The notes beneath the pieces were generated by a model, which was given only the letters and a program-made list of their open reading frames with translations, was not told where the DNA came from and searched no databases. A stretch of 46,452 nt of DNA. Source: a virus. The position numbers and the translations under genes were made by a program. The DNA lies in IMG/VR virus record IMGVR_UViG_3300049933_000058, positions 1 to 46,452 of that record; one strand, given 5' to 3'. Shown here in pieces: positions 128 through 46,452 of the stretch (within the stretch, counting starts at the first letter, position 1; the number at the start of each line of letters is the position of its first letter).

Positions 128-1264
128 ATGCTGGTCTATATGGTCGTAAGTTACATCAGTAGGAGCCTCCCACTTCAGAACACCCCCGTGGGACTTAGTT
201 ATCTTTTCCGCCAACTGCTTTAGAGACAACTTACCCTCTGTTTTAGTACGTTGCCTCCTAGACAGCTCAAAACCTATCCCCAGACCTGTTAACTCGGTTT
301 TACCCTCTGATAGCCCGTGTGTGCCCTGATGGTAGTACTCAAAACTCACATCATCTATTGTCACAATGAGTTTGTTACCCTTTACGACAGCTTGCGCTGT
401 AGCAGCGTTACCTGTGTCAAGCCCTGTAGACTCTGGAGTAACCTTAGGGGCTACAGCCCCACCGCCGGCTTCCGCTATAAGCGCTGCTGTAGGTGCTCCT
501 TCCCACTTGGCGAAGGCTTTCAACCACCTAGGCATCTGAGAGGGCACAATACCATTAATAACGCGCCTTGAGTTGTAGATGTCCTTTTTACCACCGCCTA
601 AATAGGCAGACATCTTCCTCCCGGTAAAGAGACCATCACGGCACCCTACAGCCATAATACGGGCAGCTATAGCAGGGTCTGCCACATAGTCTGGGTTAGC
701 AATAAGGTCTACATTAAGGCGCTTAGTCCACTTGGCAAAGTTAACCCTCCCCGTCATTTGAGCGAAACCTCTACCCCTAAACTTGTAACCGTCACCTGGC
801 TGGGTGTTACCGATGTCCCTCCTACCTTCATAACGGTTGAAATAGGAGCGACTACCCTCTTCTACCAAGATACGCCCCATGTCTGTCTCATGTTCAGCCA
901 CCGCCAACAGATAGGTGATATGTAACGGGTCTGTCAACCCTGCTGCCAACCCAGCCTTAACAATAGCTAACTGAACTGACTTCTTATCCCGCCCTACGGT
1001 GCCAGGTGGCACACTACCACCACTATCTGGTGTTACACTGCCAGGTTCCATTGGAGGGCTCTCAGGCGGCTCTATAGACTGTATACCACCACTTTTAAAG
1101 GTGTGGTTAATAACCCTTTCAGCTATAAGGTGTCCGGGGTCTGCCACCACCACTCTCACCGCCGAGCCTTGCTTACCCTGTCCAAGTGACACCACTAGCT
1201 CTGTGAGACGGTCACCAACACTCCACTCCTCTAAACCCTCTAGTTGTACTGTTGCTCTCAACAT
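1..1264 (-). CDS. Tail hub / tail-associated lysin, N-terminal part with GH19 muramidase-like domain. Same ORF as 45379..46452 across the circular junction.
   Basis: The minus-strand ORF is open from ATG 1264 to the window start and is in frame, through the 127-bp overlap, with 45379..46449. My translation contains AEHETDMG ... GDGYKFRGRGFAQMTGRVNFAKW, a GH19 chitinase-like / phage lysozyme signature. The whole protein is about 736 aa. Confidence 0.8.
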   Translation of the reverse strand, partial: MLRATVQLEGLEEWSVGDRLTELVVSLGQGKQGSAVRVVVADPGHLIAERVINHTFKSGGIQSIEPPESPPMEPGSVTPDSGGSVPPGTVGRDKKSVQLAIVKAGLAAGLTDPLHITYLLAVAEHETDMGRILVEEGSRSYFNRYEGRRDIGNTQPGDGYKFRGRGFAQMTGRVNFAKWTKRLNVDLIANPDYVADPAIAARIMAVGCRDGLFTGRKMSAYLGGGKKDIYNSRRVINGIVPSQMPRWLKAFAKWEGAPTAALIAEAGGGAVAPKVTPESTGLDTGNAATAQAVVKGNKLIVTIDDVSFEYYHQGTHGLSEGKTELTGLGIGFELSRRQRTKTEGKLSLKQLAEKITKSHGGVLKWEAPTDVTYDHIDQHGLSDYKLLQRLCEQSGYLMRDEGKTIIISTIANLVDTGIVLI

Positions 1265-1268
1265 GTTA

Positions 1269-1493
1269 TCACAAAGTGTATGTGTCCACTAACTGACTAA
1301 GGAAAGGATGTGTTCTCATCTTTTGTAGGAGTGCATCTAGAGTTGGTGCTTGGCAATGCACTTCTGACCCTATGAGCAAGTTATAGGAACATCCCACCCC
1401 ACTTCTAGATATCATTTGGCATCTGTAAACTAAACATGGGTATATATGCCTAGACAGCCTACCCATAGCTTCCAACTCAGGGTCATCTCTCAT
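1269..1493 (-). CDS. Hypothetical small protein upstream of the hub/lysin gene
   Basis: The ORF track gives 1269..1568. I prefer the internal ATG at 1493, which follows AAGGAG (GATAAAGGAGTTGATATG). The stop lies 4 nt before the hub gene start. Confidence 0.5.
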   Translation of the reverse strand: MRDDPELEAMGRLSRHIYPCLVYRCQMISRSGVGCSYNLLIGSEVHCQAPTLDALLQKMRTHPFLSQLVDTYTL

Positions 1494-1528
1494 ATCAACT
1501 CCTTTATCTATACTCAGGGACGCTGCAA

Positions 1529-1610
1529 CCACACTCACACCTAGAGATATCTCCCTTGGTGTTATCACATTATCACCACCCTAAAGATATCTAGTTGTGT
1601 GAGTGTGTTT
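1529..1610. promoter_or_regulatory. Divergent control region with inverted arms flanking TGTTATCACA plus TTATCACC
   Basis: Left arm is CACACTCACAC-CTAGAGATATCT and right arm is AGATATCTAG-TTGTGTGAGTGTG. The GATATC sites are at 1546-1551 and 1586-1591, 40 bp centre to centre. The region lies between minus gene 1493 and plus gene 1650. Confidence 0.6.
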
Positions 1611-1623
1611 AATGAGTTATAAT
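1595..1623 (+). promoter_or_regulatory. Sigma70-type promoter for the 1650 gene
   Basis: TTGTGT (1595-1600), a 17-nt spacer, then TATAAT (1618-1623), 27 nt upstream of ATG 1650. Confidence 0.6.
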
Positions 1624-1649
1624 AGGGAGAGACGAGATGGGTTAAAGGT

Positions 1650-2432
1650 ATGAGCATTAAAACGATACCATTCAGAGACGATGCCAGCTTTTTGGAAGAG
1701 GCCATGGCTAAGGCTAAAGAGTTAGGAACCAACTTAACCCAAGTCATGAGGACTCAACTAAGACAGTGGCTAGGTATGCCTGAGGATACCAGAACTCTAG
1801 ATACTGTAACGGGTGCTGCTGCCGAGGTTATGATAGCAGATGGTACTTGCTATAACTGGTCTGGTAAAAAGCGTATAAACAGTATGCTACCTGTACACGT
1901 TGTAACCCACGGTAAGTTATGGCTGGTAGACCGTACTAAGAACTACTCACACAAGATACTCAGAAGTGTGTGTGTGCTACCTCAGTGCATTATCAGCACT
2001 GTTGGAGAGGCTAGGGGTGACCTTGTACCAAAACTCCTCGACCTTACCTCAGATGACCTTGTAGACCGTGTTGCTAACCTATTACAAGTTGAAGCAATGA
2101 CCTGGTTTCAGGAGATGCACCATCGTCAGCAGAGCTATGTTATTGATGCTGCTCTCAATGGTGACACCCTAGAACAACTCATAGACTACTATGCCCCTAA
2201 ACCTGTTATCACAGAGGTCATAGAACCACAACCAGAGGAGCCACAGGAGACTGTTATCACAACAGACACTAAGAAGCCTGAAGCCAGAGACAAGCAACTA
2301 CGGAAGCGCTACAGCATCAGTGCCGATGAGTGGCACGCTAACCTATCCACCTGGAAGAGAGAGGGTTTAAAGACGGTTGACGGGTTGGTGTGGCGCTTTA
2401 TCCGCTACTCTAATATGTGGTTAGCCAGTTGA
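1650..2432 (+). CDS. Putative ribbon-helix-helix (Arc/CopG-like) DNA-binding regulator with a long C-terminal extension
   Basis: The N-terminus IKTIPFRDDASFLEEAMAKAKELGTNLTQVMRTQLRQWL fits a beta-strand plus two-helix RHH pattern. It is the first gene after the divergent control region. Confidence 0.6.
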   Translation: MSIKTIPFRDDASFLEEAMAKAKELGTNLTQVMRTQLRQWLGMPEDTRTLDTVTGAAAEVMIADGTCYNWSGKKRINSMLPVHVVTHGKLWLVDRTKNYSHKILRSVCVLPQCIISTVGEARGDLVPKLLDLTSDDLVDRVANLLQVEAMTWFQEMHHRQQSYVIDAALNGDTLEQLIDYYAPKPVITEVIEPQPEEPQETVITTDTKKPEARDKQLRKRYSISADEWHANLSTWKREGLKTVDGLVWRFIRYSNMWLAS

Positions 2433-2863: not shown

Positions 2864-3018
2864 TGACACAGACAGAGCAATATTACATCAAAGGCAACAT
2901 CAACGCTAGACAGACGTTACAGCGCTTCATCAAAGCGGGTGCCGAAGCTAGCCTAGCCTATTCACAGCCCAAACAACAGTTTGTTATCACAGTGACCTAT
3001 AGTATCAGGGAGCGTTAA
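2863..3018 (+). CDS. Small hypothetical protein (51 aa, below the ORF-track cutoff)
   Basis: Its ATG overlaps the previous stop (TAATG). My translation is MTQTEQYYIKGNINARQTLQRFIKAGAEASLAYSQPKQQFVITVTYSIRER. Confidence 0.4.
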   Translation: MTQTEQYYIKGNINARQTLQRFIKAGAEASLAYSQPKQQFVITVTYSIRER

Positions 3019-3021: not shown

Positions 3022-3240
3022 ATGTTACCATCAACTATAGAAGAGTATTTAACCACACTGGATGAGGTAGCCCTAAGCGCCCTCTCCAATGAGTGTGAAC
3101 AATACTACACATCCAGCACCGCCCCGCTTAATAGTACTGTTAGAGTGTTATCACAACGTTACTTAGGGTCAAACACCCACATAGGTTTTGTTGCAACATG
3201 TTTGGCAGTATGGCGTCATATAGCCCGTAAAGGAGTCTAG
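3022..3240 (+). CDS. Hypothetical protein
   Basis: 72-aa ORF packed tightly after the previous gene. Confidence 0.5.
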   Translation: MLPSTIEEYLTTLDEVALSALSNECEQYYTSSTAPLNSTVRVLSQRYLGSNTHIGFVATCLAVWRHIARKGV

Positions 3241-3891: not shown

Positions 3892-3913
3892 ACATTGTTA
3901 TAACAAGGCTCCC

Positions 3914-3982: not shown

Positions 3983-4528
3983 ATGGACTATAGGAAGCCG
4001 GCAATGTTATCACAAGAGGAGTGGAGAAGAGGCTATGACCTCTGGTTAAGAAGTGGTTACACCCTAGAACAGGTAGGTAGGCACCTGGGGTTACGTCCTA
4101 ACAGTGGTCGGAGTGTGTCAACATATCTCAATAAATATTTTGGCAGGGGTGCGACAGACCCTATAGCCAACAGCTTTGTGAGGTCGATGGCTGAGGACTA
4201 TCCAGGTGAGCCGTGGGTGGCAGGGTTGGAACCGGAGGATAACCGGGGGTCTGGGAGGTTTATGACGATATCCGTAGAGCGTGGTTTAGCCACTAAGGGG
4301 ACGGCTAAACTGGTGGGGAACCGTTCTAATGAGATGAAGTACCGGATAGCTTACCAACAGTCTCTAAGACAGTCCTACGACCCGTGGGAGCAGTTTGAGC
4401 CTAAACCTTATAGCCTGCTGATGTTCACACTGGTTTTTAACGCTATTATCCCATTGTTAGAGTTGTTACTGAGAGGTCAGAATAGTGGCGGTATTCAACT
4501 ACAAAGCAATGTTATCACGAGTGACTGA
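3983..4528 (+). CDS. HTH-containing protein, possibly the DNA-recognition component of the small terminase
   Basis: HTH-like segment GYTLEQVGRHLGLRPNSGRSVSTYL. It sits directly upstream of the terminase genes. Confidence 0.5.
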   Translation: MDYRKPAMLSQEEWRRGYDLWLRSGYTLEQVGRHLGLRPNSGRSVSTYLNKYFGRGATDPIANSFVRSMAEDYPGEPWVAGLEPEDNRGSGRFMTISVERGLATKGTAKLVGNRSNEMKYRIAYQQSLRQSYDPWEQFEPKPYSLLMFTLVFNAIIPLLELLLRGQNSGGIQLQSNVITSD

Positions 4529-4811
4529 GTTTGGGGGTGACCCTCTACAACTCATGGAACAGGCAGAGGAGATAAGGTTGGCATCACTAAGTGAGGGTGT
4601 ACTCACCGAAAAGATATCGGTAAAGGATGGGGTGTTAGAGGTCAATGAGCGTAACCCCCAGACCGCCTTAGCAGCAGTCCGTTTAAAGTTTGACCTAACC
4701 AAGTGGTTGACAGTTCAAACCGAAGCTAACCAGGAGGAAAACACCGAGTGTAGGCTTGTTATAACAGGGTTGGATATGACGCCGCCGAAGGAGATACAAC
4801 GTTATGGGTGA
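4485..4811 (+). CDS. Terminase small subunit-like protein
   Basis: Its stop overlaps the large terminase start (ATGGGTGA). Size and position are typical. ATG 4509 is an alternative start. Confidence 0.5.
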   Translation: MAVFNYKAMLSRVTEFGGDPLQLMEQAEEIRLASLSEGVLTEKISVKDGVLEVNERNPQTALAAVRLKFDLTKWLTVQTEANQEENTECRLVITGLDMTPPKEIQRYG

Positions 4812-6132
4812 CTTGGTACTGACACCCCACCCTAAGCAGTGTGAAGTAATGAACAGCCGTGCCAAGGTGACGATGATAAGGGCGGGGCGACGGTGGGGTA
4901 AGACTAAGTTAGGTCAGTACCTCAGCATCCTTTGGTGTCTCAACTGGCGAGAGATGCTCCTTAGGAAGGGCTGGGATATGGAGGGGACATGGGCTGATGG
5001 GCATAAACCTGTGAACCTTGTGACAATGCCTACAGCAGTTATGGCTCGTCAAATATGGTTTGAGTCTCTCTATAGTATGTTATCACAACACCCTTTGGTA
5101 GCAAGTATCAATAAGCAGTCAATGACTTTTAAGTTTAAGGGTGACCGGCCTGACTTGTTGATAAGGGGGGCTAACGATGCCAATGGTGACCGCTTACGCG
5201 GGTTAAAAGTCATGGCACTGTGGGTAGACGAGGTACAGAACGTTAGACAACCTGTGATAGACCGTGTGTTGATGCCAGCAATGTCCGACTTACCCTTTAG
5301 TCAAGCCTATATGACGGGGACACCTCTTGGTAAGAGTAATGTCTTCTATAGACTGTGGCAACGTGATAACGGGGATAGCACCCGTCAACTAAACTACCAC
5401 TTTCCTACTGAAACTAACCCCTACTTCCCTAAGGATGAGTTAAGAGAGTATAAACTGATACTACCCCCGTCTGTTTACAGGGAGGAATATGAGGCGACCT
5501 GGGAAGACACCCCCGGTGCATGGTTCACCAGTCTGGATGAGGACAACCTCACAGACGAGTTACCGCCTGACTGGGAAGAGTGTATTCTAGGGGTTGACCA
5601 CGGCGACATCAACCCAGCCCATATTGTGATAGTTCGTTACAAAGACACCTGGATATATGTTGATGGGTGGCAACCCAATAACACAGCCGTTTCGGATGGT
5701 GAGGGGCATCAGTTTAAAGCATTGCCGATACCTGAGTATGAACAAAACGACTCCTTAGTGCAACTGGCTAAAAACTGGGACGTTACAGAGACCCGGTGTG
5801 ACCCTGCAAGACCAGCCAGAGTATTAGATATTCGTATACTGGGCAAAGAACAGCGTCTAACGGGGCTACAGAGGTCGGTAGCGGGTTATAACAAACAACT
5901 GGATGGCATCTCCCAGATGCATAACTTAATGGCTCAGAAGCGCTTGTTGTTTTACCGAGGGCAGAAGGCAGGCGGTAACACTCTAGACGGGCAAACCTTA
6001 TATGACCTGTGTAAAAGTTATCACAAGAAACTTGACCCTGATGGTAACCCGTTACCTATAGAGGCACCCGGTCAAAATAGCCATGCCATAGATGCTCTAA
6101 GGTATGCCATAGCGCGTCAAACTACCCGATAG
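4804..6132 (+). CDS. Terminase large subunit
   Basis: Walker A-like RAGRRWGKTKLG and Walker B LWVDEVQ. The C-terminal nuclease region carries acidic motifs (GVDHGD, HAIDALRYA). Confidence 0.85.
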   Translation: MGDLVLTPHPKQCEVMNSRAKVTMIRAGRRWGKTKLGQYLSILWCLNWREMLLRKGWDMEGTWADGHKPVNLVTMPTAVMARQIWFESLYSMLSQHPLVASINKQSMTFKFKGDRPDLLIRGANDANGDRLRGLKVMALWVDEVQNVRQPVIDRVLMPAMSDLPFSQAYMTGTPLGKSNVFYRLWQRDNGDSTRQLNYHFPTETNPYFPKDELREYKLILPPSVYREEYEATWEDTPGAWFTSLDEDNLTDELPPDWEECILGVDHGDINPAHIVIVRYKDTWIYVDGWQPNNTAVSDGEGHQFKALPIPEYEQNDSLVQLAKNWDVTETRCDPARPARVLDIRILGKEQRLTGLQRSVAGYNKQLDGISQMHNLMAQKRLLFYRGQKAGGNTLDGQTLYDLCKSYHKKLDPDGNPLPIEAPGQNSHAIDALRYAIARQTTR

Positions 6133-6379: not shown

Positions 6380-7910
6380 AACTTTGTTATCACAACTCCA
6401 CAGTCACTACAGTTACTATAGGGGTGCTTGGCAGACTATCAAAGACCTTAGGGAAGGGTTTGTCACCATAAGTGCTAAAAAGGAACGCTATGCACCCCAG
6501 CGGATAGGAGAGGAGCCCGAAGTCTATGCTAACCGCCTATCCTCCCTCAGTTACACTAATATCCTAAATGAGAACATCCACCGTCTAGCCTCTATCCTAA
6601 CCTCTACCCCAGTCAACCTAGAGTACACCGATACCCCTTTTTGGGATGAAGTCCTCAAACGCTTAGATGGTGCTAATATGAGCCATAATGACTTTATATA
6701 CTCCATCTACACCGACTTACTCTACTATGGTAGAGTCTGTATTGCTGTCGATAACCCTGTTATAACAAGTGCTGCAAGGTCACGACTAGAGTTTATAGAA
6801 GGTAGACAGTACCCTAGGGTGACTCTGTTTAACCCACTGGAAGTCATCAACTGGGGGGATGACTGGGTGATGACCCTACAGATAAATGAGGTTAACCAGC
6901 CGCTACAACCTAAGGCTATTTATGCTACCTGGAAACTGTGGACTCAGGACACTATCACAACTTGGTCTACTGAGGTCACAATAAACATTGACAATGTGAT
7001 AACAATGGTTAAAGTGGGTTCAAAGTGGTACTCACCTGAGGATAAAAGAGCAGTGTTACAAGGTGAGACACTAGAGCATGGTTGGGGCGGGTTGCCAGTC
7101 ATCAGACGTACTTTAAATGATGAGAAATGGGTTGGTGGTGCCGTCTATCCTAAGGCGTTGCAACACTTCAACATAGAGTCATCATGGACATGGGCAGGGC
7201 GTTATGCTGGCATTATACAGCGTGTCTTTATACCCTTAGCTCCTACTGCTAATGATAACCCTGCCTTACTTCTAGACCCACCCGACTATTCAGAGATGGT
7301 TAGCGACAATGCCCATGTTCTGATAGGGCAAGGCTTCCAGTTCGTAGAAACTACCGGAACAGCTATCACCACTTTAGGGGGACAGTTAGAAGCTATTAAG
7401 AACGATGTCAAAGACACTGTGAACATTACTTTTGCTTCGGGTGCCCCTGTTGAGCAGTCAGGAGTGGCTAAAAAGGTGGATATGCTACTCCTACAAAACG
7501 CCTTAACCTCCTATGGCTACCTGGGTACTGAAATAGATGAAGAAGTGTTAAGCACCATAGCCATGGTAGCAGGGACAGATGAGCCTACAGTTAAAAGCAA
7601 CCTGAGCTACTCTCTAGAAGACGCTACGACTGCCTTAGACACTGTGGATAGGGTTCTACCTCACGCTGAAAACGTTGCTCCCGTAACCCTCAGAGAGCTA
7701 TATAAGAAGTTACAACACCTATTACTACCTGATGTTCCTGACGAGATAAAAGAGGAGATAGACGCTGAAACACCCACCTTTGAAGACGAACCAGAGGCGG
7801 GTGAGGAGGAAGAAACCGAAGAAGACCCAAGAGGGCTGAAAGAACGCCTTATGGAGTACTTCAACCTAACTGAGGAGGAAGCTGAAGAAGTGCTACAGGA
7901 GAGCGAGTAG
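6309..7910 (+). CDS. Portal protein (putative)
   Basis: About 520-530 aa, follows the large terminase, and has a strongly acidic C-terminus. The start is uncertain (TTG 6309, ATG 6333 or ATG 6366). Confidence 0.6.
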   Translation: MKAPSNFIMSPLYTLKNCLMLTSITLLSQLHSHYSYYRGAWQTIKDLREGFVTISAKKERYAPQRIGEEPEVYANRLSSLSYTNILNENIHRLASILTSTPVNLEYTDTPFWDEVLKRLDGANMSHNDFIYSIYTDLLYYGRVCIAVDNPVITSAARSRLEFIEGRQYPRVTLFNPLEVINWGDDWVMTLQINEVNQPLQPKAIYATWKLWTQDTITTWSTEVTINIDNVITMVKVGSKWYSPEDKRAVLQGETLEHGWGGLPVIRRTLNDEKWVGGAVYPKALQHFNIESSWTWAGRYAGIIQRVFIPLAPTANDNPALLLDPPDYSEMVSDNAHVLIGQGFQFVETTGTAITTLGGQLEAIKNDVKDTVNITFASGAPVEQSGVAKKVDMLLLQNALTSYGYLGTEIDEEVLSTIAMVAGTDEPTVKSNLSYSLEDATTALDTVDRVLPHAENVAPVTLRELYKKLQHLLLPDVPDEIKEEIDAETPTFEDEPEAGEEEETEEDPRGLKERLMEYFNLTEEEAEEVLQESE

Positions 7911-9143: not shown

Positions 9144-9203
9144 TGTCACAACTCCTTTGTGATAACAAGTAGGGTAGAGCCTTGTGACCATACCCGGTGA
9201 GCT

Positions 9204-37978: not shown

Positions 37979-39856
37979 ATGGGAACACTAGGGTATAAGA
38001 GAGTAACTGGAGGTGGCGACCTTGGGAAACAGTTGGAAGGGACTAAACCTAATAGTGTCCGTGCTGACAACGATGAGCAGAGAGAGCGTGCGCCCTATGT
38101 GAGTATGAGGGAGTTGTTACAACAACTCCAAAGGCAGTTGATAGCTAAGGGTTGGAAACTGCAACCCACGTTAGGAGGTGACTTTGCTGGGTTTAATGTC
38201 TATGTTAGTCAGTCTCCAAACAGCGCTCTTATGTTGAATGCACCGGGTTTTAAACATTGGGTGAGAGTTAAGCCTGACGATGCCCGTATTGAGGGCTTTC
38301 TAGAGCGTGTGCTGGCTATAGCTAACTCAGCCCGTATGGAGTCAGATGATAAGACGCTAGCAGCGCAATGGACAGCTATTGCTAAGAGCTTCATAGACCG
38401 TCCTAAGGATGGGCGTAGCGAAGTAGCTATGGCGGCTATGGGTTTGAGTGACGGGCAACTACAGCGCTCATTAAAAGGTGCCAAGGACTGTTATAAGTTT
38501 GTACCCCCTGTCGAGTGGTTCCCTGAGAACGTACAGCAAATAGATGTGCCTAAACTATTTGAGACGTTAATGCCAGAGGCGGAGGCGGAAGCCTTGATGC
38601 TGATGTTGGGTAAGACCCTTCTAGGTAACCCTGGAAACCCTACGAGTGAAGGTGTGGTACCTGATACTAAGTTTGCTGCTTTAAGTGTCCTTATAGGGTT
38701 TGAGGGTGGCGAGGGTAAGAGTTCGCTGATGTCGGGTTACCTAGGTACAGCGATGGAGTTACTAGGGTACGATGTGGCTACTATTGACCCTGAGAGCAAC
38801 CGTTTCAGTAACTTATGGGTTGTGTCAGACTATGCGTATTGCGACGAGCTAGATGATGCAGCTCATCAGCGACTACTGACTCAGTGGGCATTGCTCAAGT
38901 CTGTGGTGTCAGGTCAGAAACGGGTGTTAGTGGAAGCGAAGGGTGTTCAGTCATGGGAGGTTAACCCTACAGCACAGCCTTTCTTTAGTTCTAACAACTA
39001 TAGCGACACCTGGTTACAAAAGAGTAACGGGGGTATGAGGCGGCGTTATTTCCCCCTACAGTGTTATGGGGCAGAGGAGTCATCGGTAATATTTGGAGAT
39101 AACTGGAAGAGGGGTCGTATTGCCGAGTTATGGCAACGTGAGGCGGCTAAGCTAGGTGTAACGGTTCAATGCTTATCTGCAAGGGTGTTACGCTACTGCT
39201 TAGACCTCTACCTAGACGTTTGTGGCATTGTTATCACAGACAGTCAGATAATGTTTAACTGGGAGACATCCAGGTTGGAGAACCGGATGCAGGAGTTGAG
39301 AGCTAAGTTCCGTATTAACGTAGATATGGAACATGGTAAGAGGTTGGTTGATGCGATAGAAGCCGTGTCTATGGCAGCTATAAAGACCATAGAAAGCCGT
39401 TATCAACCTATGGTGATGGAGAGGCTACACAAACTAACACTAATGCCTAAAGCCTTACACACTGTCATTGACATATGGCGTATGGAGGAAGCCTTGCCTG
39501 AGAGTTTAAAAGCAATGTATCTAGAGGACATCAGCCCTAACGTAAGGCAAACTTGGGATAGTCAAACAGATAGGTTACACCAGGATATTCTCTCTTCCGT
39601 CAACCCGTCCAAGGTATGGGAAAGACTTATCGAGTGTCTGACTGTAAAAGGTAAGGAATGGCACTTTCAGAAGAGCATAGCTTCCTACTCAGTTCGTTGG
39701 AACACTAAGTTAATGACCCTAAGACACAAGTTAGAAGCGTTGCCACAGTGTGATGTAGACACACTGCCAGAAACCACTTATGGTTATCTAAAGGAGTTAG
39801 GCCAACAGATACTAGTAGTGTTAAATATTGTTAACCCTCCTAGAAGAGGTCGTTAA
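37979..39856 (+). CDS. SF3 (D5/P4-type) helicase, possibly a primase-helicase
   Basis: Walker A GFEGGEGKSS, Walker B YAYCDELDD and motif C FFSSNN. The N-terminal ~230 aa are unassigned. Confidence 0.7.
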   Translation: MGTLGYKRVTGGGDLGKQLEGTKPNSVRADNDEQRERAPYVSMRELLQQLQRQLIAKGWKLQPTLGGDFAGFNVYVSQSPNSALMLNAPGFKHWVRVKPDDARIEGFLERVLAIANSARMESDDKTLAAQWTAIAKSFIDRPKDGRSEVAMAAMGLSDGQLQRSLKGAKDCYKFVPPVEWFPENVQQIDVPKLFETLMPEAEAEALMLMLGKTLLGNPGNPTSEGVVPDTKFAALSVLIGFEGGEGKSSLMSGYLGTAMELLGYDVATIDPESNRFSNLWVVSDYAYCDELDDAAHQRLLTQWALLKSVVSGQKRVLVEAKGVQSWEVNPTAQPFFSSNNYSDTWLQKSNGGMRRRYFPLQCYGAEESSVIFGDNWKRGRIAELWQREAAKLGVTVQCLSARVLRYCLDLYLDVCGIVITDSQIMFNWETSRLENRMQELRAKFRINVDMEHGKRLVDAIEAVSMAAIKTIESRYQPMVMERLHKLTLMPKALHTVIDIWRMEEALPESLKAMYLEDISPNVRQTWDSQTDRLHQDILSSVNPSKVWERLIECLTVKGKEWHFQKSIASYSVRWNTKLMTLRHKLEALPQCDVDTLPETTYGYLKELGQQILVVLNIVNPPRRGR

Positions 39857-40457: not shown

Positions 40458-43151
40458 ATGTACATCAAACCCCTGTCAGAAGCTTTACACCAACGTCTTT
40501 TAGGGCGTCCACCCCAGCCTGTGGCACCTCAAGACGTTAGACGGATAGCTCAGTACATCGCCCGTTTCTTTCCCGACGGTGTAGAGGATAACTCTAAAGT
40601 GGTAGAGTTACCACTACCGAAGTGGGCACCCAGTCAACAACAGTTAGACAAGGATATAGAGGCATTGGCAATGCCTTGTATTAGTCAGGTGTTAGCCTGG
40701 ATGGATGTTGACAGACTGGTAACTCCTCATAACTGGCAATGTCCTGTAGGTTGGTCTCAATGGGCAGGTGAACAATGGGTTAGTATTGAACAGCCCCCTC
40801 CCGGCTGTTATATGCTTGACATTGAGACTGTACCCGTAGAGTGGAGACATTTTAGTGCAGGCGGTGACCCTGAGCCGACATTGTGGGCACCTGTTTGTAG
40901 CATAGCTGTAAGCCTAACTGATGTTTATGTTTGGAGAGCAGACCACCGTGGCGGGTTAGAGGACTTAGACCTGCTTTACCCAGGCGTGGACGGGGTAAGC
41001 ATAGGTCATAACATCGGTTATGACCAGAGTTACTCACTGCGGGAGCATGTCTCCCACTTTGACGACTGGTCACAGCGCCCGATGGCTGTAGACACAATGG
41101 GTCTCTGGATGGTCACTAGAGGTCATTGCAACCAGCAGAGGGCGTTAGTTAACTTAGAGGACGGATGGCAACCAGCGTGGACAGACGAAACCACAGGGGC
41201 AAGCCTAGTTAATGTCTATGAGTTCTATTTCAATGAACCTCTGGATAAAGGGGTGCGTGATAACATTGTCAAACAGGGTTGGGAGTTCGTTAGGAACAAC
41301 TACCCCACAGTACTGGAGTATTGTTATAACGATATTGTAGCGTGCGCTCAGGTGTTTCAAGCGTTGATGAGGGAGTGGATAGAGGCCAACACATACCAGG
41401 GTCAAACCCAATGGCTCACACTGTGGTCGATGATGCTCCTTAGTCAGTCTTGGTGCCCATTAGACGAAGACCTGGCACCGGACTACTTCAATAACGCTGA
41501 GGAGCATTACCAAAGCATTAAAGCAACATTATCACAAGACCTATTAAAGTCTGCTGACGATGTTATAACACACTTTGAACAGTTGTTGTCGTACCATTGG
41601 GATAGTGAACCGGATGCTATCAACTATGCTCTAACAGTAACCCAGTCTGGGAAGAAGTACTGTTACGTCCTATGGGAGGGCGAGGAAGACCCCACAGAGA
41701 GAGAGTTACAGCTTATTCACTCCTTAGACTGGACGCCTGCCTTAACCGGTAAAAATAAAGGTGTTGCTGCATGGTATCGCGGGCTTCTTAAGAACTGCTC
41801 CATAGGGTCTAAACTGGCACCTATTATCATGGGTTTCACCTGGAAAGGTTCACTCTTATACTACAACGACTCTGTAGGATACCATACTTGTGATAACAAG
41901 GGTAATGTGACAAAGGTATCTAACCCTGACAAGCGTGGTAAGCCAGTGCACTCGATGTTGATGAAAGGTTTTAAGGATGACGCCCGGTTATCGGCTATAA
42001 CACCAATATCAGAGGGTATCCTTAAAAAGGTTCATTCTACGTTAAACTGGGTTAGCCTAAGGAAGCGTGTTGCAGGGTTGCACGCCTACGACCTAGAGGG
42101 CTACCCCGTATTTAAAGACCAGTTAAGACCTTGGGGTACGGTCACCCGGCGTTCCACTAGTAGTATCACCCAAGTTCTACCTAAGATGGACAAGTATGGG
42201 TGTGTGGGCGCTAACGTTAGGGCATTGTTTAAGCCACCTAGGGGGATGAGGTTCATCACGGCTGACTTTGACTCACAAGAGCTACTGTTGGCAGCAGAGT
42301 TAGGAGACGCTATCCTAGAAGCCTACAAAAGAGTGGGTTACCGAGGTTCAACACCTTTCAGTATCAGTTGCCATATTGGGGAGAAAGAGAATAAGACAAC
42401 CCCCCACTGGCTGTTATCACTGAGCGCTCAAATAGACTACACTCTAGCCAAAAACATTGGCTACGCTGTTATCTACGGTCAGTCTGTAAACGGTTCGGTT
42501 GACTACTTCCTGATGGCTAACAAGGATATGAGTCAGTCGGAAGCCTTAGAAAGAGCTACTACCACACACAACAAACAGAAGGGTGTCAGAGACCGTGCTA
42601 GCGGGTTATATTACAACGGCGCTGCCAGTCCCACTTATAACAACTTAAACCGCCTTGTGGCCTCTCCCGACCCCCGGTCACTACTCTCTCATCAACAGAT
42701 GAGCAAGGCTTTATCACAAGCTAAGGGGGACTTTGTGACAACAAAGCAGAACTGGTTTATCCAGGAAGCCGGGTCTTCGATGCGTGACCGTCTCGTGGTG
42801 TACTCGTGGTACTTTATGCAACGTTATAACATCAGTGGTAGGTTGGTTATGACGGTTCACGACGAAGCATTGCACTGTGTGGTAGAGCATCAGGCTGAGT
42901 TGATGGCATACATATTGCAACTGTCACATCTGTATATAACAGCCTGGAAAACAGACCGGCTAAACCTAGATATCCTACCCGCAGGACAGTCCTACTTTTC
43001 ATCCGTAGAGGTTGATACCAGGTGGCGTAAGTCGGTAACTGCTAACCCTCCCAGCACCCCTGATATGCCCGATACGGTGTGGGAGCCTGGTTATAGCCTG
43101 AACCCATCAAGGCTTACAGCCTTGATAGAGTCTGGAGCTTTGGTCATCTAA
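40458..43151 (+). CDS. Family A DNA polymerase with 3'-5' exonuclease domain
   Basis: Exo motifs YMLDIET, GHNIGYDQSY and YCYNDIVA. Pol motif A ITADFDSQELLLAAEL, motif B LAKNIGYAVIYGQS and motif C MTVHDEALH. Confidence 0.9.
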   Translation: MYIKPLSEALHQRLLGRPPQPVAPQDVRRIAQYIARFFPDGVEDNSKVVELPLPKWAPSQQQLDKDIEALAMPCISQVLAWMDVDRLVTPHNWQCPVGWSQWAGEQWVSIEQPPPGCYMLDIETVPVEWRHFSAGGDPEPTLWAPVCSIAVSLTDVYVWRADHRGGLEDLDLLYPGVDGVSIGHNIGYDQSYSLREHVSHFDDWSQRPMAVDTMGLWMVTRGHCNQQRALVNLEDGWQPAWTDETTGASLVNVYEFYFNEPLDKGVRDNIVKQGWEFVRNNYPTVLEYCYNDIVACAQVFQALMREWIEANTYQGQTQWLTLWSMMLLSQSWCPLDEDLAPDYFNNAEEHYQSIKATLSQDLLKSADDVITHFEQLLSYHWDSEPDAINYALTVTQSGKKYCYVLWEGEEDPTERELQLIHSLDWTPALTGKNKGVAAWYRGLLKNCSIGSKLAPIIMGFTWKGSLLYYNDSVGYHTCDNKGNVTKVSNPDKRGKPVHSMLMKGFKDDARLSAITPISEGILKKVHSTLNWVSLRKRVAGLHAYDLEGYPVFKDQLRPWGTVTRRSTSSITQVLPKMDKYGCVGANVRALFKPPRGMRFITADFDSQELLLAAELGDAILEAYKRVGYRGSTPFSISCHIGEKENKTTPHWLLSLSAQIDYTLAKNIGYAVIYGQSVNGSVDYFLMANKDMSQSEALERATTTHNKQKGVRDRASGLYYNGAASPTYNNLNRLVASPDPRSLLSHQQMSKALSQAKGDFVTTKQNWFIQEAGSSMRDRLVVYSWYFMQRYNISGRLVMTVHDEALHCVVEHQAELMAYILQLSHLYITAWKTDRLNLDILPAGQSYFSSVEVDTRWRKSVTANPPSTPDMPDTVWEPGYSLNPSRLTALIESGALVI

Positions 43152-43243: not shown

Positions 43244-43936
43244 ATGCCCCGCTACACGATAAAGTCAGCCACCGCTAAGTTTTCAGCATATGGCACAGTC
43301 AACATTTATAAGAATACAACGGTCACTGCCACCAACACCAATAATATGCTTATTGGATGGTACTACCTCAGATATTCTGATGAGTTTGGCTCTGTTAACC
43401 TTTGTTCACAAACCCTCGTCGGGGTAGTTGAGCATGACACAGCAGAGTTTGAGGCGTTGTCAGAGGGTTACGGCTTCTGTAACCTCATTCAGCGTCTTGA
43501 GTCCGGTGTTACCCTCCCTTATTTATCACAGGGGTACAGCTTCCAATACGCCGAGAACGGAGCTGTCACTGTATTTTGCCCAGATGGGTCTACCTTCACC
43601 CTACCTTACCTACTCGTAGCCTTAGAAGCCATAGACCTAGGCTTCTACAACTTGGGTCAGTCATGCCCTGTCGAGTACCATTACAGCCCGGTTGACGAGT
43701 TTGGCTACCAAGAGGTTGTCTGTATCCCCCAGACTGGTCTATCAGAAGCTTTAGAACGTGACGACCAACTCTTGTTATCACAAGGCTACAACCCTGAGAT
43801 ACACTGGTTAGCTGGTGATAAAGTGCTAACACTAGACGGTGACCGCTTTGTGGGTAACATCGGTGAACCATATTACCAACCCGCCTACCTGTCCGAGTCT
43901 GAGTTCTATAAAGACGCCCATCTGATGGAGTTCTAA
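43244..43936 (+). CDS. Hypothetical protein
   Basis: The internal ATG at 43244 follows AAAAGGAAACAAACCG. Confidence 0.55.
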   Translation: MPRYTIKSATAKFSAYGTVNIYKNTTVTATNTNNMLIGWYYLRYSDEFGSVNLCSQTLVGVVEHDTAEFEALSEGYGFCNLIQRLESGVTLPYLSQGYSFQYAENGAVTVFCPDGSTFTLPYLLVALEAIDLGFYNLGQSCPVEYHYSPVDEFGYQEVVCIPQTGLSEALERDDQLLLSQGYNPEIHWLAGDKVLTLDGDRFVGNIGEPYYQPAYLSESEFYKDAHLMEF

Positions 43937-44003: not shown

Positions 44004-44381
44004 ATGATAGTCTCAGCCATTAACAACAGCTACAGCGCCTTACAGACAGCTTCTAGATGGTATTGGTCAGCACAGACTCAGCAGACTCTTTCCAACACTG
44101 TTCAAACCATTGCCGAGGTCTTCACCACACTCCTACTAGTGTTATCACAAGTCTACACAGACTATGTAACCCTTCTAGACATCTGGTTAACCCCCGGTTG
44201 CGACACTGAGACCTTTGTTATAACAAAGTTGATAGAACCACAACAACTAGACTGGCGAGACGTTGGTGGGATGTTACAAGCCGACTGTAGCTTTGTGATA
44301 ACATGGTTAGGGTTTACTTTAGGCGACCTGAGCCACGGTGTGACAGAGCTGTACTATCGAGTAAAGACGGTGTTAACATGA
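44004..44381 (+). CDS. Hypothetical protein
   Basis: 125-aa ORF containing three motif copies. Confidence 0.5.
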   Translation: MIVSAINNSYSALQTASRWYWSAQTQQTLSNTVQTIAEVFTTLLLVLSQVYTDYVTLLDIWLTPGCDTETFVITKLIEPQQLDWRDVGGMLQADCSFVITWLGFTLGDLSHGVTELYYRVKTVLT

Positions 44382-44623
44382 GTGAGCCAGATGCTACAGG
44401 GTGTTATCATGAGCCTATACACAAAGAAGTAGGCAAGTCTAAGTTAGTCAAAGTCAAGAGGGTTAGAAAAGCAATGAACTTCCAAACTGATGCTGAAACA
44501 CTGATGGCACTTGGGTTTAGAGTTGAAAGAGAAGACAGTTATGTTTATGTAGACAACAAAGGCTATATCATGACTAAAGGCTATACGCTAGGGCATCTAT
44601 ATTATCTACCGGACTGGGTGTAA
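44378..44623 (+). CDS. Hypothetical protein
   Basis: ATG 44378 overlaps the previous stop (ATGA). The ORF track starts earlier, at 44303. Confidence 0.5.
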   Translation: MSEPDATGCYHEPIHKEVGKSKLVKVKRVRKAMNFQTDAETLMALGFRVEREDSYVYVDNKGYIMTKGYTLGHLYYLPDWV

Positions 44624-44702
44624 CATGGTTTATTGGATGCTTGTTATAACACTTTGGTACTGCACACTGAGCATTGTGATAACACTGATAGGAGTTTAAC
44701 TT

Positions 44703-44858
44703 ATGTCTTACACTGATGGTTGGTATAAGTCACATGAGCTTTACCAGAACAATAAGATAATAGGTGCTGCTTTTTATGCTAAGTTGTTACTATGGGGCGG
44801 TGAGTACAGCGAATATGACCAAGGTTTTAAAGACGGTTGGGAACACCTAACGATATGA
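44703..44858 (+). CDS. Small hypothetical protein (51 aa, below the track cutoff)
   Basis: AGGAG lies 8 nt upstream. My translation is MSYTDGWYKSHELYQNNKIIGAAFYAKLLLWGGEYSEYDQGFKDGWEHLTI. Confidence 0.45.
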   Translation: MSYTDGWYKSHELYQNNKIIGAAFYAKLLLWGGEYSEYDQGFKDGWEHLTI

Positions 44859-44871
44859 TGTCAGTCTTTTA

Positions 44872-45309
44872 CTAGATGAGAGAGACAGCCTGAAAGGGTT
44901 GTCTCCTTTGTTTGGGGTAGTACTTATCCTTTAGAATAGGAGTGTCGATGAGGGTGGCTAGTTCATGGAGTGTCCTAGAGGCTTCTATCTTGACCATAGC
45001 CGAGCCACGTCCGAAGTCCAGGGTAAGTTGTCCCACCTGGTTAGCCATCGCCGTAGAGGTCATATCGCGCAGTTGTAGCTCCCAATACTGTAGCCAAGCA
45101 ACCAAGCGGTGTACCTGAACAATACGGGCGTCTGAAGCCTCAACCCGCGTGTCTCCCGAACCGGTGTGGCGGTTCTTGTACCGGAAGCTGTAGCCGAGCC
45201 AGGGGTATACATCTATGGTAGTGGGTAACCAACTGTTGGGGGGTATCTCTAGGGGCGTCCCCTCGGTAGGGTCAATAGGGTAGTCTGTACGGGTAATATC
45301 GGTGGTCAT
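44872..45309 (-). CDS. Hypothetical protein downstream of the hub/lysin gene (tail/baseplate candidate)
   Basis: Internal ATG at 45309 (MTTDITRTDY...). Confidence 0.5.
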   Translation of the reverse strand: MTTDITRTDYPIDPTEGTPLEIPPNSWLPTTIDVYPWLGYSFRYKNRHTGSGDTRVEASDARIVQVHRLVAWLQYWELQLRDMTSTAMANQVGQLTLDFGRGSAMVKIEASRTLHELATLIDTPILKDKYYPKQRRQPFQAVSLI

Positions 45310-45378
45310 AAGGGTTATAATAGGTGTTATAGAGAGATGGAGTAGCGCTGATGAAGACTTGCACAAAATGTCTGGAAA

Positions 45379-46452
45379 CTAAGGACTCGATAACGCCTTA
45401 ATGGTTTCACCCTTTTTAGGTATCCTCAGACCGAGCGCGCTAGTGTAGTTATAGGTTCCTCCACCAGATGACCGATAGGTGTTGCCTTGTAACCCAGTAA
45501 TATCAATGTGAAGATGCACCCCTGTAACCTTACCTGTAGCGCCTTGCTTACCTATTAACTCACCTCTCTTAACCTGTTGACCCATCCTAACTAAGCGCGC
45601 TGATAGGTGCATGTATCTGATAATGCTACCATCAGCGTGTTTTATATTGATACAGGTACCACTGCCAGCAAACCCACAGACCACACCGTCTTGCATAGAA
45701 TAGACAGGTGTCCCCTCACTTGCCGCGATGTCTAGACCGATGTGGGGGGAAGTACCAACGCTTCTTATTTGGTTCTGAGTAGAGGTGACCGTGCCATTAG
45801 TAGGCCAAACGTAACCCTGTCCTGTTGGTGGCTGTGGTGGTGTTTCCCCATTGGATACCCCTCCGGGTACCGAGTTATCCAAAACCTCTACAGGGCTGTA
45901 TACATTGAGTGTGGTGGTACCCTCTCTCAGGTTATGCTCTACCTTATCAATAGCCCATATCCGTGATAACACCCCTGGTAAACCCTCTGTGATAACAGTA
46001 AACAATGGTGCTAGGGTTAGGGAGGTCTTAGACAACGGGATAACAAAGGTAGAGGGTAACCCCTTGAGGCGCTTAGTACGGGCAACCTGTGTTGCAACAG
46101 TAGCTTGTGACTCCGGTGCGACCGTGGCTTGTTTGTTGTCTGACTTTGCCCCCGTAGCTGCTTTGTCCTTAGCCTTGTCAATATCAGGTGACTTAGCCTT
46201 AAAGGTGCCAGTAGCCGGTTCTAACTCTGTCTTCTGCTCTGTTTGGACAACACTCCTACCCTCATCCTCAGCATCGTCACCCAACGCCTCATCCTTGATA
46301 TCCCACTTCAACAGGTTTAGACCCGGTATCAACACTATACCTGTGTCTACAAGGTTGGCTATGGTGCTGATGATAATGGTTTTACCCTCGTCTCTCATCA
46401 GGTAGCCAGACTGCTCACAAAGGCGCTGTAACAGTTTATAGTCACTCAAGCC
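45379..46452 (-). CDS. Tail hub / tail-associated lysin, C-terminal part with M23 peptidase domain. Continues into 1..1264.
   Basis: M23 metallopeptidase motifs HIGLDIAA ... GVHLHIDI at the C-terminus. LSDYKLLQRLCEQSGY is weakly gpD-like. The ORF is open to the window end and continues at base 1264 via the overlap. Confidence 0.8.
   Translation of the reverse strand, partial: GLSDYKLLQRLCEQSGYLMRDEGKTIIISTIANLVDTGIVLIPGLNLLKWDIKDEALGDDAEDEGRSVVQTEQKTELEPATGTFKAKSPDIDKAKDKAATGAKSDNKQATVAPESQATVATQVARTKRLKGLPSTFVIPLSKTSLTLAPLFTVITEGLPGVLSRIWAIDKVEHNLREGTTTLNVYSPVEVLDNSVPGGVSNGETPPQPPTGQGYVWPTNGTVTSTQNQIRSVGTSPHIGLDIAASEGTPVYSMQDGVVCGFAGSGTCINIKHADGSIIRYMHLSARLVRMGQQVKRGELIGKQGATGKVTGVHLHIDITGLQGNTYRSSGGGTYNYTSALGLRIPKKGETIKALSSP
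46326..46452. repeat. Terminal direct repeat (right copy)
   Basis: Identical to bases 1-127. Confidence 0.95.

Follow-up and report, generated by a model that had tools for sequence, protein, structure and literature searches.

The 46,452-nt viral sequence IMGVR_UViG_3300049933_000058 of the IMG/VR collection (the whole stretch analysed here, referred to as the window) carries 64 exact copies of a 10-bp motif, TGTKATMACA (K, G or T; M, A or C), the first at position 1264 and the last at 45988-45997. The virus is a small cyanomyovirus of a freshwater clade, and the motif, dispersed over genes and intergenic regions alike, is peculiar to this one phage clade and, so far as scans for closely spaced pairs of copies can tell, reflects neither base composition nor any sequenced cellular genome. 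We favour the explanation that its copies are genome-wide operator-like sites for a dimeric DNA-binding protein, with a role coupled to transcription; judged from sequence patterns, this reading seems to us to stand slightly short of an even chance. Binding sites for a dimeric protein had been among the possible roles listed in the original prediction by eye.

Exact counting reproduced the figures first reported by eye (at least 64 copies) down to the split among variants, with 22 copies of TGTTATAACA, 26 of TGTTATCACA, 16 of TGTGATAACA and none of the fourth variant, TGTGATCACA. Dinucleotide-shuffled sequences held 0.29 copies on average and 3 at most. The codon-level controls suggested at the outset gave the same answer: 41 copies lie wholly within predicted coding sequences (CDS), compared with 0.25 expected from codon-order shuffling and 4.5 (maximum 10 in 500 runs) from shuffling synonymous codons while keeping all proteins. 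Since the excess survives both codon null models, peptides and codon choices are both bent towards the motif. A chance, composition or codon artefact is ruled out by the dinucleotide, Markov, codon-order and synonymous-codon shuffles, and the shuffles also exclude a pure by-product of codon or avoidance constraints.

One-mismatch variants are thinly scattered over many sequences, although they number 32 and not about 20 as first estimated; being so few and so scattered, they show that the motif is very sharp. Positions 4 and 7 hold K and M, respectively, in 64 of the 65 occurrences of TGTNATNACA, yet 12 combinations of bases at these two positions would be compatible with the tetramer avoidance described below. 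A minor family with a changed centre comprises eight copies of TGTTGCAACA and four of TGTTGTAACA/TGTTACAACA, and TGTKRYMACA totals 77. The proposed symmetric extension to tTGTKATMACAa holds at one end, where A follows CACA in 30 of 42 sites, but not at the other, where T precedes TGTTA in only 15 of 42. Both orientations and all three reading frames are used, as had been noted, the commonest frame being nnT-GTK-ATM-ACA, in which every variant encodes Val-Ile-Thr. Sense-strand TGTTATCACA is in 2:1 excess in this frame; the excess can plausibly be explained by stop codons and ATC/ATA usage without any role of RNA, as TGTGATAACA and TGTTATAACA contain TGA or TAA in one frame and ATC/ATA usage differs. 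A literature search for the three 10-mers retrieved nothing relevant, the Zur-box papers that it returned sharing only GTTATAAC. The window also contains 52 copies of GTTAAC (about 4-fold enriched), and the tetramers GTTA and TAAC are about 2-fold enriched beyond the motif's own contribution.

A search with the portal protein gave three closer relatives (L230, 88% identity; L231, 73%; L232, 72%) and, at 32%, a distant 52-kb lineage. To follow individual sites, we mapped them through BLAST alignments to the three closer relatives. In L230 the orthologous position keeps the motif at 21 of 26 sites, at 77% nucleotide identity, where neutral divergence would leave 7% (0.77^10); at 72% identity, L231 keeps it at 8 of 11 sites and L232 at 7 of 11. 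Sites at the same position switch among the three variants, synonymously where they are coding, and complete flips of orientation are seen at the orthologs of sites 2204, 10546 and 45988, while site 10077 is symmetric in the window, reverse in L230 and forward in both L231 and L232. The sites are under positional purifying selection. The codon shuffles and this conservation with synonymous switching bear out the original claim that selection acts on the nucleic acid and not on the peptide. At two orthologous positions in L230, TGTTAACA stands in place of the motif.

The core is also used without regard to transcription: ahead of plus-strand genes in L234, which belongs to the distant lineage, six intergenic cores are forward, five reverse and four symmetric. 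This indifference to orientation, together with bases at positions 4 and 7 that are exact complements of each other, points to recognition of the dyad, in duplex DNA, by a reader with two-fold symmetry, and not to a peptide, RNA or host signature. An RNA-binding factor, or a sigma factor reading the non-template strand, is disfavoured because neither would impose complementary degeneracy. The earlier suggestion of -10-like decoy sites is not supported, as it leaves both the K/M complementarity and the orientation flips unexplained.

The fourth variant, TGTGATCACA, is absent because it contains GATC and all RATY tetramers are excluded from the genome, a connection already drawn in the original prediction. 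AATT, AATC, GATT and GATC each occur zero times in the window, where roughly 180-235 copies of each are expected, and 23 of the 64 palindromic hexamers are missing. The four tetramers are also at zero in L230 and the same ban holds in L294 and L321, whereas L231 and L232 lack AATT only and are GATC-poor, and L090 lacks AATC, GATC and GATT. So complete a ban on a degenerate 4-bp sequence recalls frequent cutters such as CviJI (RGCY).

The mixed sites, which join a TGTGA to a TGTTA half, dominate over those with two TGTTA halves. The ratio is 22:2 in L231, 22:0 in L232 and 42:5 in the distant lineage, a dominance that we attribute to a T·A "escape" at position 4 and/or 7 imposed by the RATY ban. 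In the rare TGTGGTCACA and TGTGGCCACA, both outer arms (TGTG and CACA) are kept and the centre is changed instead. The preferred site of the reader is probably the perfect palindrome TGTGATCACA, the observed sites being the closest approximations that are permitted. In addition, Ile codons that follow a purine are ATA in 154 of 154 cases owing to the ban, and ATA is the commonest Ile codon overall (314 of 670); the phage tRNA-Ile, with anticodon UAU, reads ATA, and the RATY-driven usage is a plausible reason for its presence. It is a rather speculative thought, to which we give little weight, that the motif forms the positive half of a two-signal self/non-self code in which the absence of RATY is the negative mark. 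The positive mark may then be read by a conserved phage machine (a coating or nucleation protein, or a packaging or replication loader), and if this were true, a RATY-type frequent cutter could degrade the DNA of the host and leave that of the phage unharmed, to be processed selectively.

On a corrected gene model, 40 sites are coding, 21 are non-coding and 3 straddle gene edges. About a third had been estimated early on to be intergenic; 24 of the 64 sites fall in, or at the edge of, the non-coding 13% of the genome, at a density of 3.9 per kb as opposed to 1.0 per kb in coding sequence. The enrichment described earlier after stops, beside terminators, after the tRNA and by start codons is supported. 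A stop codon is contained in the site or lies at most 5 nt away at 11 of these 24 sites, and the TGA/TAA within TGTGATAACA is the actual stop codon at 1264, 31023 and 34445. Two layouts recur. In the first, a stop codon is followed by the motif and then by a terminator hairpin (3896, 14175, 26156/26105 and 34445/34411; the site at 25482 also precedes a hairpin); in the second, the order is stop, motif, Shine-Dalgarno sequence and start codon (9158, 17584 and 18063/18096), and 44642/44675 likewise lie upstream of a Shine-Dalgarno sequence and a start codon. Inspection by eye, not computation, places a site no more than about 30 nt from about 7 of the roughly 11 strongest terminator hairpins.

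Many sites carry in addition a third half-site, consisting of 3-4 nt followed by (T)CAC, about 8 bp beyond the second half-site. It is present at 14 of the 64 window sites (2.3 expected) and at 16 of 24 in L234, and wherever it accompanies an intergenic site it is downstream with respect to transcription (5 of 5 in the window and 10 of 10 in L234, as read from the site lists). A promoter function was considered and rejected, since the core is orientation-free and mostly intragenic and the composite would place the transcription start inside the Shine-Dalgarno sequence; a scan for sigma-70-like elements stayed at the level of shuffled sequences. An RNA hairpin or terminator component was rejected as well: only a few L234 sites fit it, and most sites have K = T and cannot pair.

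These arrangements nevertheless invite a reading at the RNA level, in which the motif would be a processing, stability or translation signal of intercistronic regions and 3' untranslated regions and the DNA palindrome would be incidental. The intergenic copies between stop and terminator or Shine-Dalgarno sequence, those directly after the tRNA and a tRNA-like 3' end, the downstream extension co-oriented with transcription, and the 2:1 sense-strand excess of TGTTATCACA in the Val-Ile-Thr frame would all suit such a signal. However, orthologous sites flip, cores ahead of co-directional genes are randomly oriented, RNA recognition does not require complementary bases at positions 4 and 7, the sense-strand bias plausibly stems from stop codons and ATC/ATA codon preference, and the potential hairpin (TGTGA-N8-TCACA) cannot form at most sites, where K = T. 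We consider this reading very improbable.

Regular spacing was rejected: the intervals are Poisson-like (coefficient of variation 1.08) apart from pairs 33-34 bp apart, of which there are four in the window and one in L231. Density is uneven, with 36 sites in the first 18.5 kb and a gap of 4.1 kb; the tape-measure, capsid and replication blocks are poor in sites, whereas 24.5-26.2 kb and 44-46 kb hold clusters. This distribution bears on the possibility that the sites serve a core phage machine, either for loading of the small terminase ("distributed pac") or for initiation by the primase/helicase, with roughly Okazaki-fragment or headful-independent spacing and a palindromic form that works on either strand. 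One site per 0.7 kb or so approximates lagging-strand priming intervals, the otherwise Poisson-like spacing agrees, a circular assembly is consistent with headful packaging, and replication and packaging proteins are the conserved non-structural genes common to the motif-bearing lineages. Yet the density is lowest in the replication module and skewed by the accumulation in the first 18.5 kb and the 4.1-kb gap, the transcription-oriented third half-site and the post-stop placement are left unexplained, the two lineages do not share a conserved small terminase, and we know of no precedent for 10-bp primase sites or distributed pac sites. A core-machine target therefore appears to us a distant prospect.

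We examined the distribution of the motif beyond the window by scanning for pairs of copies 15-45 nt apart in IMG/VR, in genomes of GTDB and in metagenomes of the Joint Genome Institute. In IMG/VR a single contig with dispersed copies was found, IMGVR_UViG_3300018917_000004 (52 kb), a distant relative without nucleotide similarity to the window and with proteins 25-44% identical. The search in related phages that had been proposed earlier was rewarding. The density is 1.65 per kb in L230, 1.37 in L231 and 1.50 in L232; the lineage with 32% portal identity has 24 sites on one stretch of 21.6 kb and 23 on another of 21 kb (about 1.1 per kb), and the range across L230, L231, L232, L234, L083 and L042 is 1.1-1.65 per kb. 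The short metagenome fragments L294 and L321 carry the motif too. It is identical in lineages whose portal and polymerase proteins are only about 32% and 31% identical, respectively.

It had been left open whether the motif might be equally frequent in unrelated genomes of similar composition. It is not: Leptolyngbya phage Lbo402-yong5 (OR994056; 49 kb, 47% GC), the closest isolate by portal protein (30% identity), has 1 copy, and the single IMG/VR contig with dispersed copies is itself a distant relative. L090, another of the more distant relatives, has 2 copies in 9 kb; both it and Lbo402-yong5 are GATC-free. Lbo402-yong5, which has zero GATC and zero GGCC, possesses a repeat of its own, AAGTGGAC, in 42 copies, mostly as inverted pairs 45 bp apart at gene boundaries, whose conserved flanks enclose a promoter-like spacer; the idea that it shares the same repeat was rejected, as its element is different and longer. 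The other dense matches of the pair scans were local tandem arrays or iteron-like clusters on unrelated AT-rich contigs. Among these, TGTTATCACA occurs in tight tandem arrays (for example 27 copies in 759 bp) on L295, L317, L330, L337 and others, which are unrelated, GATC-containing contigs of 35-40% GC where the copies are local and not dispersed.

The original prediction had likened the motif to HIP1 or uptake sequences, and we took up this analogy as one to a signature of the host genome. In the pair scan of one genome per species, covering 185,579 bacterial and archaeal species, there were at least 100 scattered matches, with no cyanobacterium and no dispersed copies among the matches listed; none of 100 fetched 8-kb stretches (one species giving two) had a phage-like dispersed density. 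We rejected a host-genome signature, since dispersed copies appeared in the pair scans only in relatives of the clade.

A different host connection would be a conserved host component that reads the motif, with the phage sites acting as a decoy or sponge, or as a Chi- or uptake-like signal. Such a reader would explain an identical 10-mer at about 32% portal and 31% polymerase identity. Phages without nuclease inhibitors are known to accumulate host Chi sites, the motif resembles the TGTGA/TCACA half-sites of CRP-type proteins and the extended -10 element (TGTTATAAc), and the phage's own promoters look like TGnTATAAT. Against this, the species-genome scan listed neither a cyanobacterium nor a phage-like density, although a host with a density of about 1 per 5 kb would have escaped it, and a host species missing from the collection is a possible gap. 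In addition, the two GATC-free cyanophage relatives, Lbo402-yong5 and L090, are without the dispersed motif, the spacing is unlike that of CRP (N6) or NtcA (N8), and the symmetry disfavours strand-specific Chi recognition or sigma recognition of the non-template strand. We regard a host reader as rather unlikely.

The gene content suggests an enzyme as another candidate reader. A PP-loop/PAPS-reductase-like protein is encoded at 14187-15173 (-) (PF01507, 3.6e-13), with TIGR03183 DndC as best named NCBIfam match (E = 8e-17, far below the family cutoff). The gene at 2483-2863 (+) encodes 126 aa with a weak TnsA_N match (E = 0.14) and a D...EVK pattern, read by eye, which we take to be typical of PD-(D/E)XK nucleases; it lies directly 3' of a ribbon-helix-helix (RHH)-like gene in the window, L230 and L232, while two small open reading frames (ORFs) intervene in L231, and it is 80% identical in L321. 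Thus the motif could be the target of a phage DNA-processing enzyme instead of a stably bound regulator, either the DndC-like protein (modifying with sulfur, or otherwise modifying backbone or bases) or the small PD-(D/E)XK protein (nicking), and the resulting marks or nicks, one per 0.7 kb or so, would have a part in protection, replication/recombination or late transcription.

The enzyme-like sharpness of the motif (exact 10-mers, few near-misses, a compact palindrome with half-site centres 5 bp apart) would fit an enzyme, as would the presence of both genes and the extreme restriction-type pressure seen in the 23 of 64 absent palindromic hexamers. On the other hand, family scans of the window ORFs detected no further Dnd components and no methyltransferase, restriction-type sites are normally avoided and here are enriched 200-fold, the directional third half-site, the post-stop placement and the 33-bp pairs are unexplained, and the search did not show a DndC-like gene in the distant motif-bearing lineage. 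An enzyme target is in our view unlikely.

Returning to a dimeric DNA-binding protein, we envisage that TGTKATMACA is read on double-stranded DNA by a two-fold symmetric, sequence-specific protein conserved across the clade; that this protein binds, that it is phage-encoded and what its binding brings about are inferred. The sites would be genome-wide and operator-like, kept at about 1-1.6 per kb at fixed positions, and not local operators; about 60% are accommodated in coding sequence, mostly as Val-Ile-Thr, and the rest at the boundaries of transcription units. The ideal site TGTGATCACA would be barred by the RATY ban, each actual site carrying a T·A escape at position 4 and/or 7. At intergenic sites the third half-site suggests that a second dimer binds cooperatively and that the function is tied to the way transcription runs; the sites may act as polar roadblocks or insulators that separate the many gene blocks of opposite orientation, or in global temporal silencing. 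Because the exact 10-mer is conserved across about 32% protein identity, the reader would seem to be a very constrained protein, phage-encoded or, less likely, from the host.

Several observations weigh against this explanation. Phage regulators and their operators do not usually keep a 10-mer invariant across lineages at about 32% protein identity; a very conserved reader fits better, possibly one from the host or a core enzyme of replication or packaging. Most sites are intragenic and far from promoters, which excludes classical regulation of initiation. Half-site centres only 5 bp apart are atypical for helix-turn-helix (HTH) dimers, while beta-ribbon or enzyme-like readers are compatible. 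Scans against Pfam, PHROGs and NCBIfam gave no HTH, RHH, methylase or recombinase match in any ORF, and no family match to an integrase or repressor in the about 60 ORFs scanned, so that the "stoperator" logic of temperate phages is not directly transferable. The sole DNA-binding-like candidate is the RHH-like protein encoded at 1650-2432, with a variable N-terminus; in L321 this protein is 27% identical, its neighbours are 80-89% identical and the motif is unchanged.

The original prediction had linked the motif to this RHH gene. Part of the link stood: a motif copy lies 80 nt upstream, and the N-terminus has a strand-helix-turn-helix pattern that aligns in register (hhalign probability 66%, E = 5.8e-5) with a hand-typed RHH alignment. 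A profile search of the PDB gave weak matches to the RHH proteins AvtR (E = 0.12) and VapB26 (E = 0.62), Pfam gave no match and Foldseek nothing significant, and AlphaFold yielded no usable model (pLDDT 50; the isolated N-terminal domain is a single long helix). The 18-mer TGTTATCACATTATCACC precedes both this gene and a 76-aa RHH-like gene of the distant lineage. However, the putative DNA-reading strand varies (SIKTIPFR, NTKATQYR, MKTTVLR and PSIRVSEE) among four genomes that share an identical motif.

Other palindromes are found at the same promoter. The window has four copies of AGATATCT, where chance would give 0.75. They form two pairs (1545-1592 and 14053-14101) whose members are 40-41 bp apart, and inverted repeats rich in CA and TG flank both pairs, with a true (CA)n tract at 14053-14101; related half-matches occur near 35060 and 35255. 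The first pair brackets the motif copy at 1560, upstream of the RHH-like gene, and the equivalent place holds GTGTTAACAC in L230 and GTGATATCAC in L231. This suggests that AGATATCT, GTGTTAACAC and GTGATATCAC may be operators co-varying with the variable RHH N-terminus. In view of the variable DNA-reading strand and the genome-specific promoter palindromes, we think that the RHH-like protein has local operators of its own and is not the reader of the iterated motif; as such a reader it was rejected, its N-terminus varying while the motif is constant and its fold being only suggestive.

The first and last 127 nt of the window are identical (1-127 = 46326-46452), an assembler k-mer overlap, and the tail-lysin gene (M23 peptidase-like) spans the assembly junction; because the ends overlap and one gene crosses the junction, the window is a complete genome, assembled as a circle, with a true length of 46,325 bp. 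It encodes a large terminase, portal, major capsid protein, sheath, tube, baseplate and tail-collar proteins, and for replication a 5'-3' exonuclease, a D5-like primase/helicase and a gamma-like family A DNA polymerase with nearest relatives in cyanophages. Strand changes between genes are frequent, with the same layout in independent gene calls of the relatives. A predicted homologue of NblA (phycobilisome degradation; 25599-25793 (-), 64 aa; PF04485, E = 8e-9) confirms, as far as gene content can tell, a cyanobacterial host. Megablast against 50,697 phage records returned no nucleotide match to the window, and a locus search with the polymerase as single protein found no relatives.

The sole tRNA, tRNA-Ile(UAU), lies at 24900-24973 and was the only match in an Rfam scan of the window. 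It belongs to one of three paralogous non-coding loci, 24545-24975 (+), 33526-34130 (+) and about 13150-13420 (-), each with an extended -10 promoter (GGTGTTATAnT) and, at its end, either the tRNA-Ile or a tRNA-like T-arm. The three share a 5' block of about 120 nt, with 74% identity between the first two, and TGTTATCACAATACTAC stands directly after two of the three; Rfam matches only the tRNA there. The individual motif sites are listed in the table.

Table. Copies of TGTKATMACA in the window, with their genomic context, and the candidate local regulator.
Element	Position	Strand	Context
TGTTATCACA	1264..1273		junction of two minus-strand genes; holds stop of 1269-1493(-) and first ATG base of tail-lysin gene; motif kept in L230
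TGTTATCACA with downstream third half-site (TTATCACC)	1560..1577	+	centre of ~75-bp palindrome, 80 nt upstream of 1650-2432; same 18-mer before RHH-like gene in L234
TGTTATCACA	2204..2213		CDS 1650-2432, Val-Ile-Thr frame; L230 ortholog flipped to TGTGATAACA
TGTTATCACA	2252..2261		CDS 1650-2432; kept in L230
TGTTATCACA	2982..2991		small CDS 2863-3018
TGTTATCACA	3146..3155		small CDS 3022-3240
TGTTATAACA	3896..3905		intergenic, 4 nt after stop of 3652-3891, just upstream of hairpin 3914-3936; kept in L230
TGTTATCACA	4005..4014		CDS 3983-4528 (small terminase by position)
TGTTATAACA	4757..4766		CDS 4485-4811; kept in L230, L232
TGTTATCACA	5078..5087		large terminase gene; kept in L230, L231, L232
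TGTTATCACA	6385..6394		portal gene
TGTTATAACA	6758..6767		portal gene; motif in three relatives, variant switch in L232
TGTGATAACA	6995..7004		portal gene; kept in L230, L231
TGTTATAACA	8001..8010		CDS 7893-8246(-)
TGTGATAACA	8666..8675		CDS 8404-8955(-)
TGTGATAACA	9158..9167		intergenic, two minus-strand genes; abuts ribosome-binding site of 8952-9143(-)
TGTTATAACA	10077..10086		CDS 9658-10338; ortholog TGTGATAACA in L230, TGTTATCACA in L231 and L232
TGTTATAACA	10149..10158		CDS 9658-10338
TGTTATCACA	10546..10555		CDS 10502-10840; flipped in L231
TGTGATAACA	11658..11667		baseplate wedge gene 11203-12375
TGTTATAACA	12048..12057		baseplate wedge gene; motif in three relatives
TGTGATAACA	12285..12294		baseplate wedge gene; motif in three relatives
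TGTGATAACA	13141..13150		non-coding, directly after tRNA-like 3' end, minus strand
TGTTATAACA	13501..13510		non-coding, downstream ATATCAC extension
TGTTATAACA	13855..13864		non-coding, adjoins hairpin 13805-13828
TGTTATAACA	14175..14184		2 nt after DndC-like gene stop (minus strand), before terminator 14136-14159
TGTTATCACA	14594..14603		DndC-like gene 14187-15173(-)
TGTTATCACA	15744..15753		CDS 15208-15768
TGTTATCACA	15828..15837		intergenic, after hairpin 15803-15823
TGTTATCACA	16865..16874		tail sheath gene; kept in metagenome relative L294
TGTGATAACA	17394..17403		tail sheath gene
TGTTATAACA	17584..17593		intergenic, 4 nt after sheath stop, before tube gene ribosome-binding site
TGTTATCACA pair, 33 bp apart	18063..18105		first 2 nt after tube stop; second overlaps ATG of 18095-18379; pair kept in L294
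TGTTATAACA	18461..18470		CDS 18348-18566
TGTTATAACA	18546..18555		end of CDS 18348-18566, just before start of 18556-20352
TGTGATAACA	21027..21036		CDS 20793-21077(-)
TGTGATAACA	21936..21945		CDS 21068-22270(-)
TGTTATCACA	24489..24498		non-coding, about 20 nt before terminator hairpin
TGTTATCACA	24976..24985		2 nt after tRNA-Ile(UAU) 24900-24973
TGTTATAACA / TGTGATAACA pair, 33 bp apart	25082..25124		
TGTTATAACA	25482..25491		just before hairpin 25500-25530
TGTTATCACA	25990..25999		non-coding or in doubtful small ORF
TGTTATAACA and TGTTATCACA	26105..26165		flank terminator 26116-26138, just after major capsid gene stop (minus strand)
TGTGATAACA	30308..30317		tail gene 29554-31023(-)
TGTTATCACA	31023..31032		spans stop of 31028-32446(-) and start of 29554-31023(-)
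TGTGATAACA	31485..31494		tail fibre/collar gene 31028-32446(-)
TGTTATAACA	32177..32186		gene 31028-32446(-)
TGTTATCACA pair, 34 bp apart	34411..34454		between terminator 34383-34403 and stop of 34450-35043(-); second copy holds that stop
TGTTATAACA	35692..35701		CDS 35450-35812(-)
TGTTATAACA	36782..36791		near end of 5'-3' exonuclease gene, ATATCAC extension
TGTTATCACA	39229..39238		primase/helicase gene
TGTTATAACA	41561..41570		DNA polymerase gene
TGTGATAACA	41889..41898		DNA polymerase gene
TGTTATCACA	43773..43782		CDS 43244-43936
TGTTATCACA	44140..44149		conserved CDS 44004-44381
TGTTATAACA	44216..44225		conserved CDS 44004-44381
TGTGATAACA	44294..44303		conserved CDS 44004-44381
TGTTATAACA / TGTGATAACA pair, 33 bp apart	44642..44684		non-coding spacer or tail of doubtful ORF 44303-44623; upstream of ribosome-binding site of 44703-44858
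TGTGATAACA	45988..45997		tail-lysin gene across assembly junction; flipped in L231
RHH-like N-terminus protein, 260 aa	1650..2432	+	candidate local regulator; motif link doubtful

Among known dispersed sequences, HIP1 (GCGATCGC) and the uptake sequences DUS and USS resemble the motif in being sharp and short, in occurring about once per kb in all frames and near terminators, and in being maintained at the DNA level. They are, however, signatures of cellular chromosomes that phages share passively, whereas the present motif belongs to one phage clade only; HIP1 moreover contains GATC, which is excluded completely from the phage genome, and, unlike uptake or Chi sequences, the motif is symmetric, flips freely and is not iterated in the scanned genomes. 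Dispersed operators are also familiar from plasmids and phages, as in the P1 C1 operators, the OB palindromes of RK2 KorB (13-bp palindromes that act at a distance), the omega heptads of pSM19035 (WATCACW) and the tandem 8-bp boxes of MetJ, and RHH proteins bind cooperatively to neighbouring sites 7-8 bp apart. These systems share with the motif the principle of one regulator with many sites on a replicon; the 7-8 bp RHH offset resembles the 8-bp distance of the third half-site, and the motif contains TATCACA, which fits the omega heptad. Yet their 10-20 sites lie essentially all at promoters or centromeres and are not known to occur by the dozen within genes, a homologue of ParB, KorB or omega is not detectable in the window, and the RHH-like protein does not co-vary with the motif.

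The closest analogues appear to be two repeat families of mycobacteriophages. The stoperators of Cluster A phages are asymmetric 13-mers in about 25-35 copies, the sites of the L5 gp71 repressor, nearly all intergenic, bound by the monomeric repressor of a temperate phage and blocking elongation in a polar manner (PMC6550527). Like them, the motif is a short dispersed sequence found at gene boundaries, and its intergenic composite of core and downstream half-site is co-oriented with transcription. In contrast to stoperators, the core is symmetric, random in K/M orientation and mostly intragenic, only the third half-site being co-oriented, and no repressor or integrase is detectable.

The nearest described case seems to be that of Corndog and its Cluster O relatives, which carry a 17-bp dyad repeat (5'-TGTTCGGNNNCCGAACA); of the 34 invariant copies in Corndog, which show no orientation, one third are intragenic, and a dimeric binder has been predicted for them (PMC4351075). 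Both cases combine dozens (more than 30) of invariant inverted-repeat copies throughout the genome, kept throughout related phages, intergenic as well as intragenic, without transcription orientation, mostly away from promoters, and in a phage that is not obviously temperate. They differ in sequence, in host phylum and in phage type (a cyanomyovirus here, a mycobacterial siphovirus there). The motif described here is 10 bp long without a spacer, about three times denser (1.4 as against 0.5 per kb) and about 60% intragenic as against about one third; positional purifying selection is seen across genomes of 70-77% identity, and the dyad is "broken" by RATY avoidance and accompanied by a directional third half-site at intergenic copies.

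Dispersed invariant dyad repeats in lytic phages are thus known, with Cluster O as the example, yet unexplained, and the cyanophage clade offers a sharper case: denser, coding in three frames, under positional selection, and with a palindrome deformed by the RATY ban. It illustrates the strong influence that non-coding signals can have on the protein-coding sequence and the codon or tRNA content of a virus, provides a diagnostic signature by which members of the clade can be recognised in metagenomes, and could reveal a new class of genome-wide phage DNA reader.

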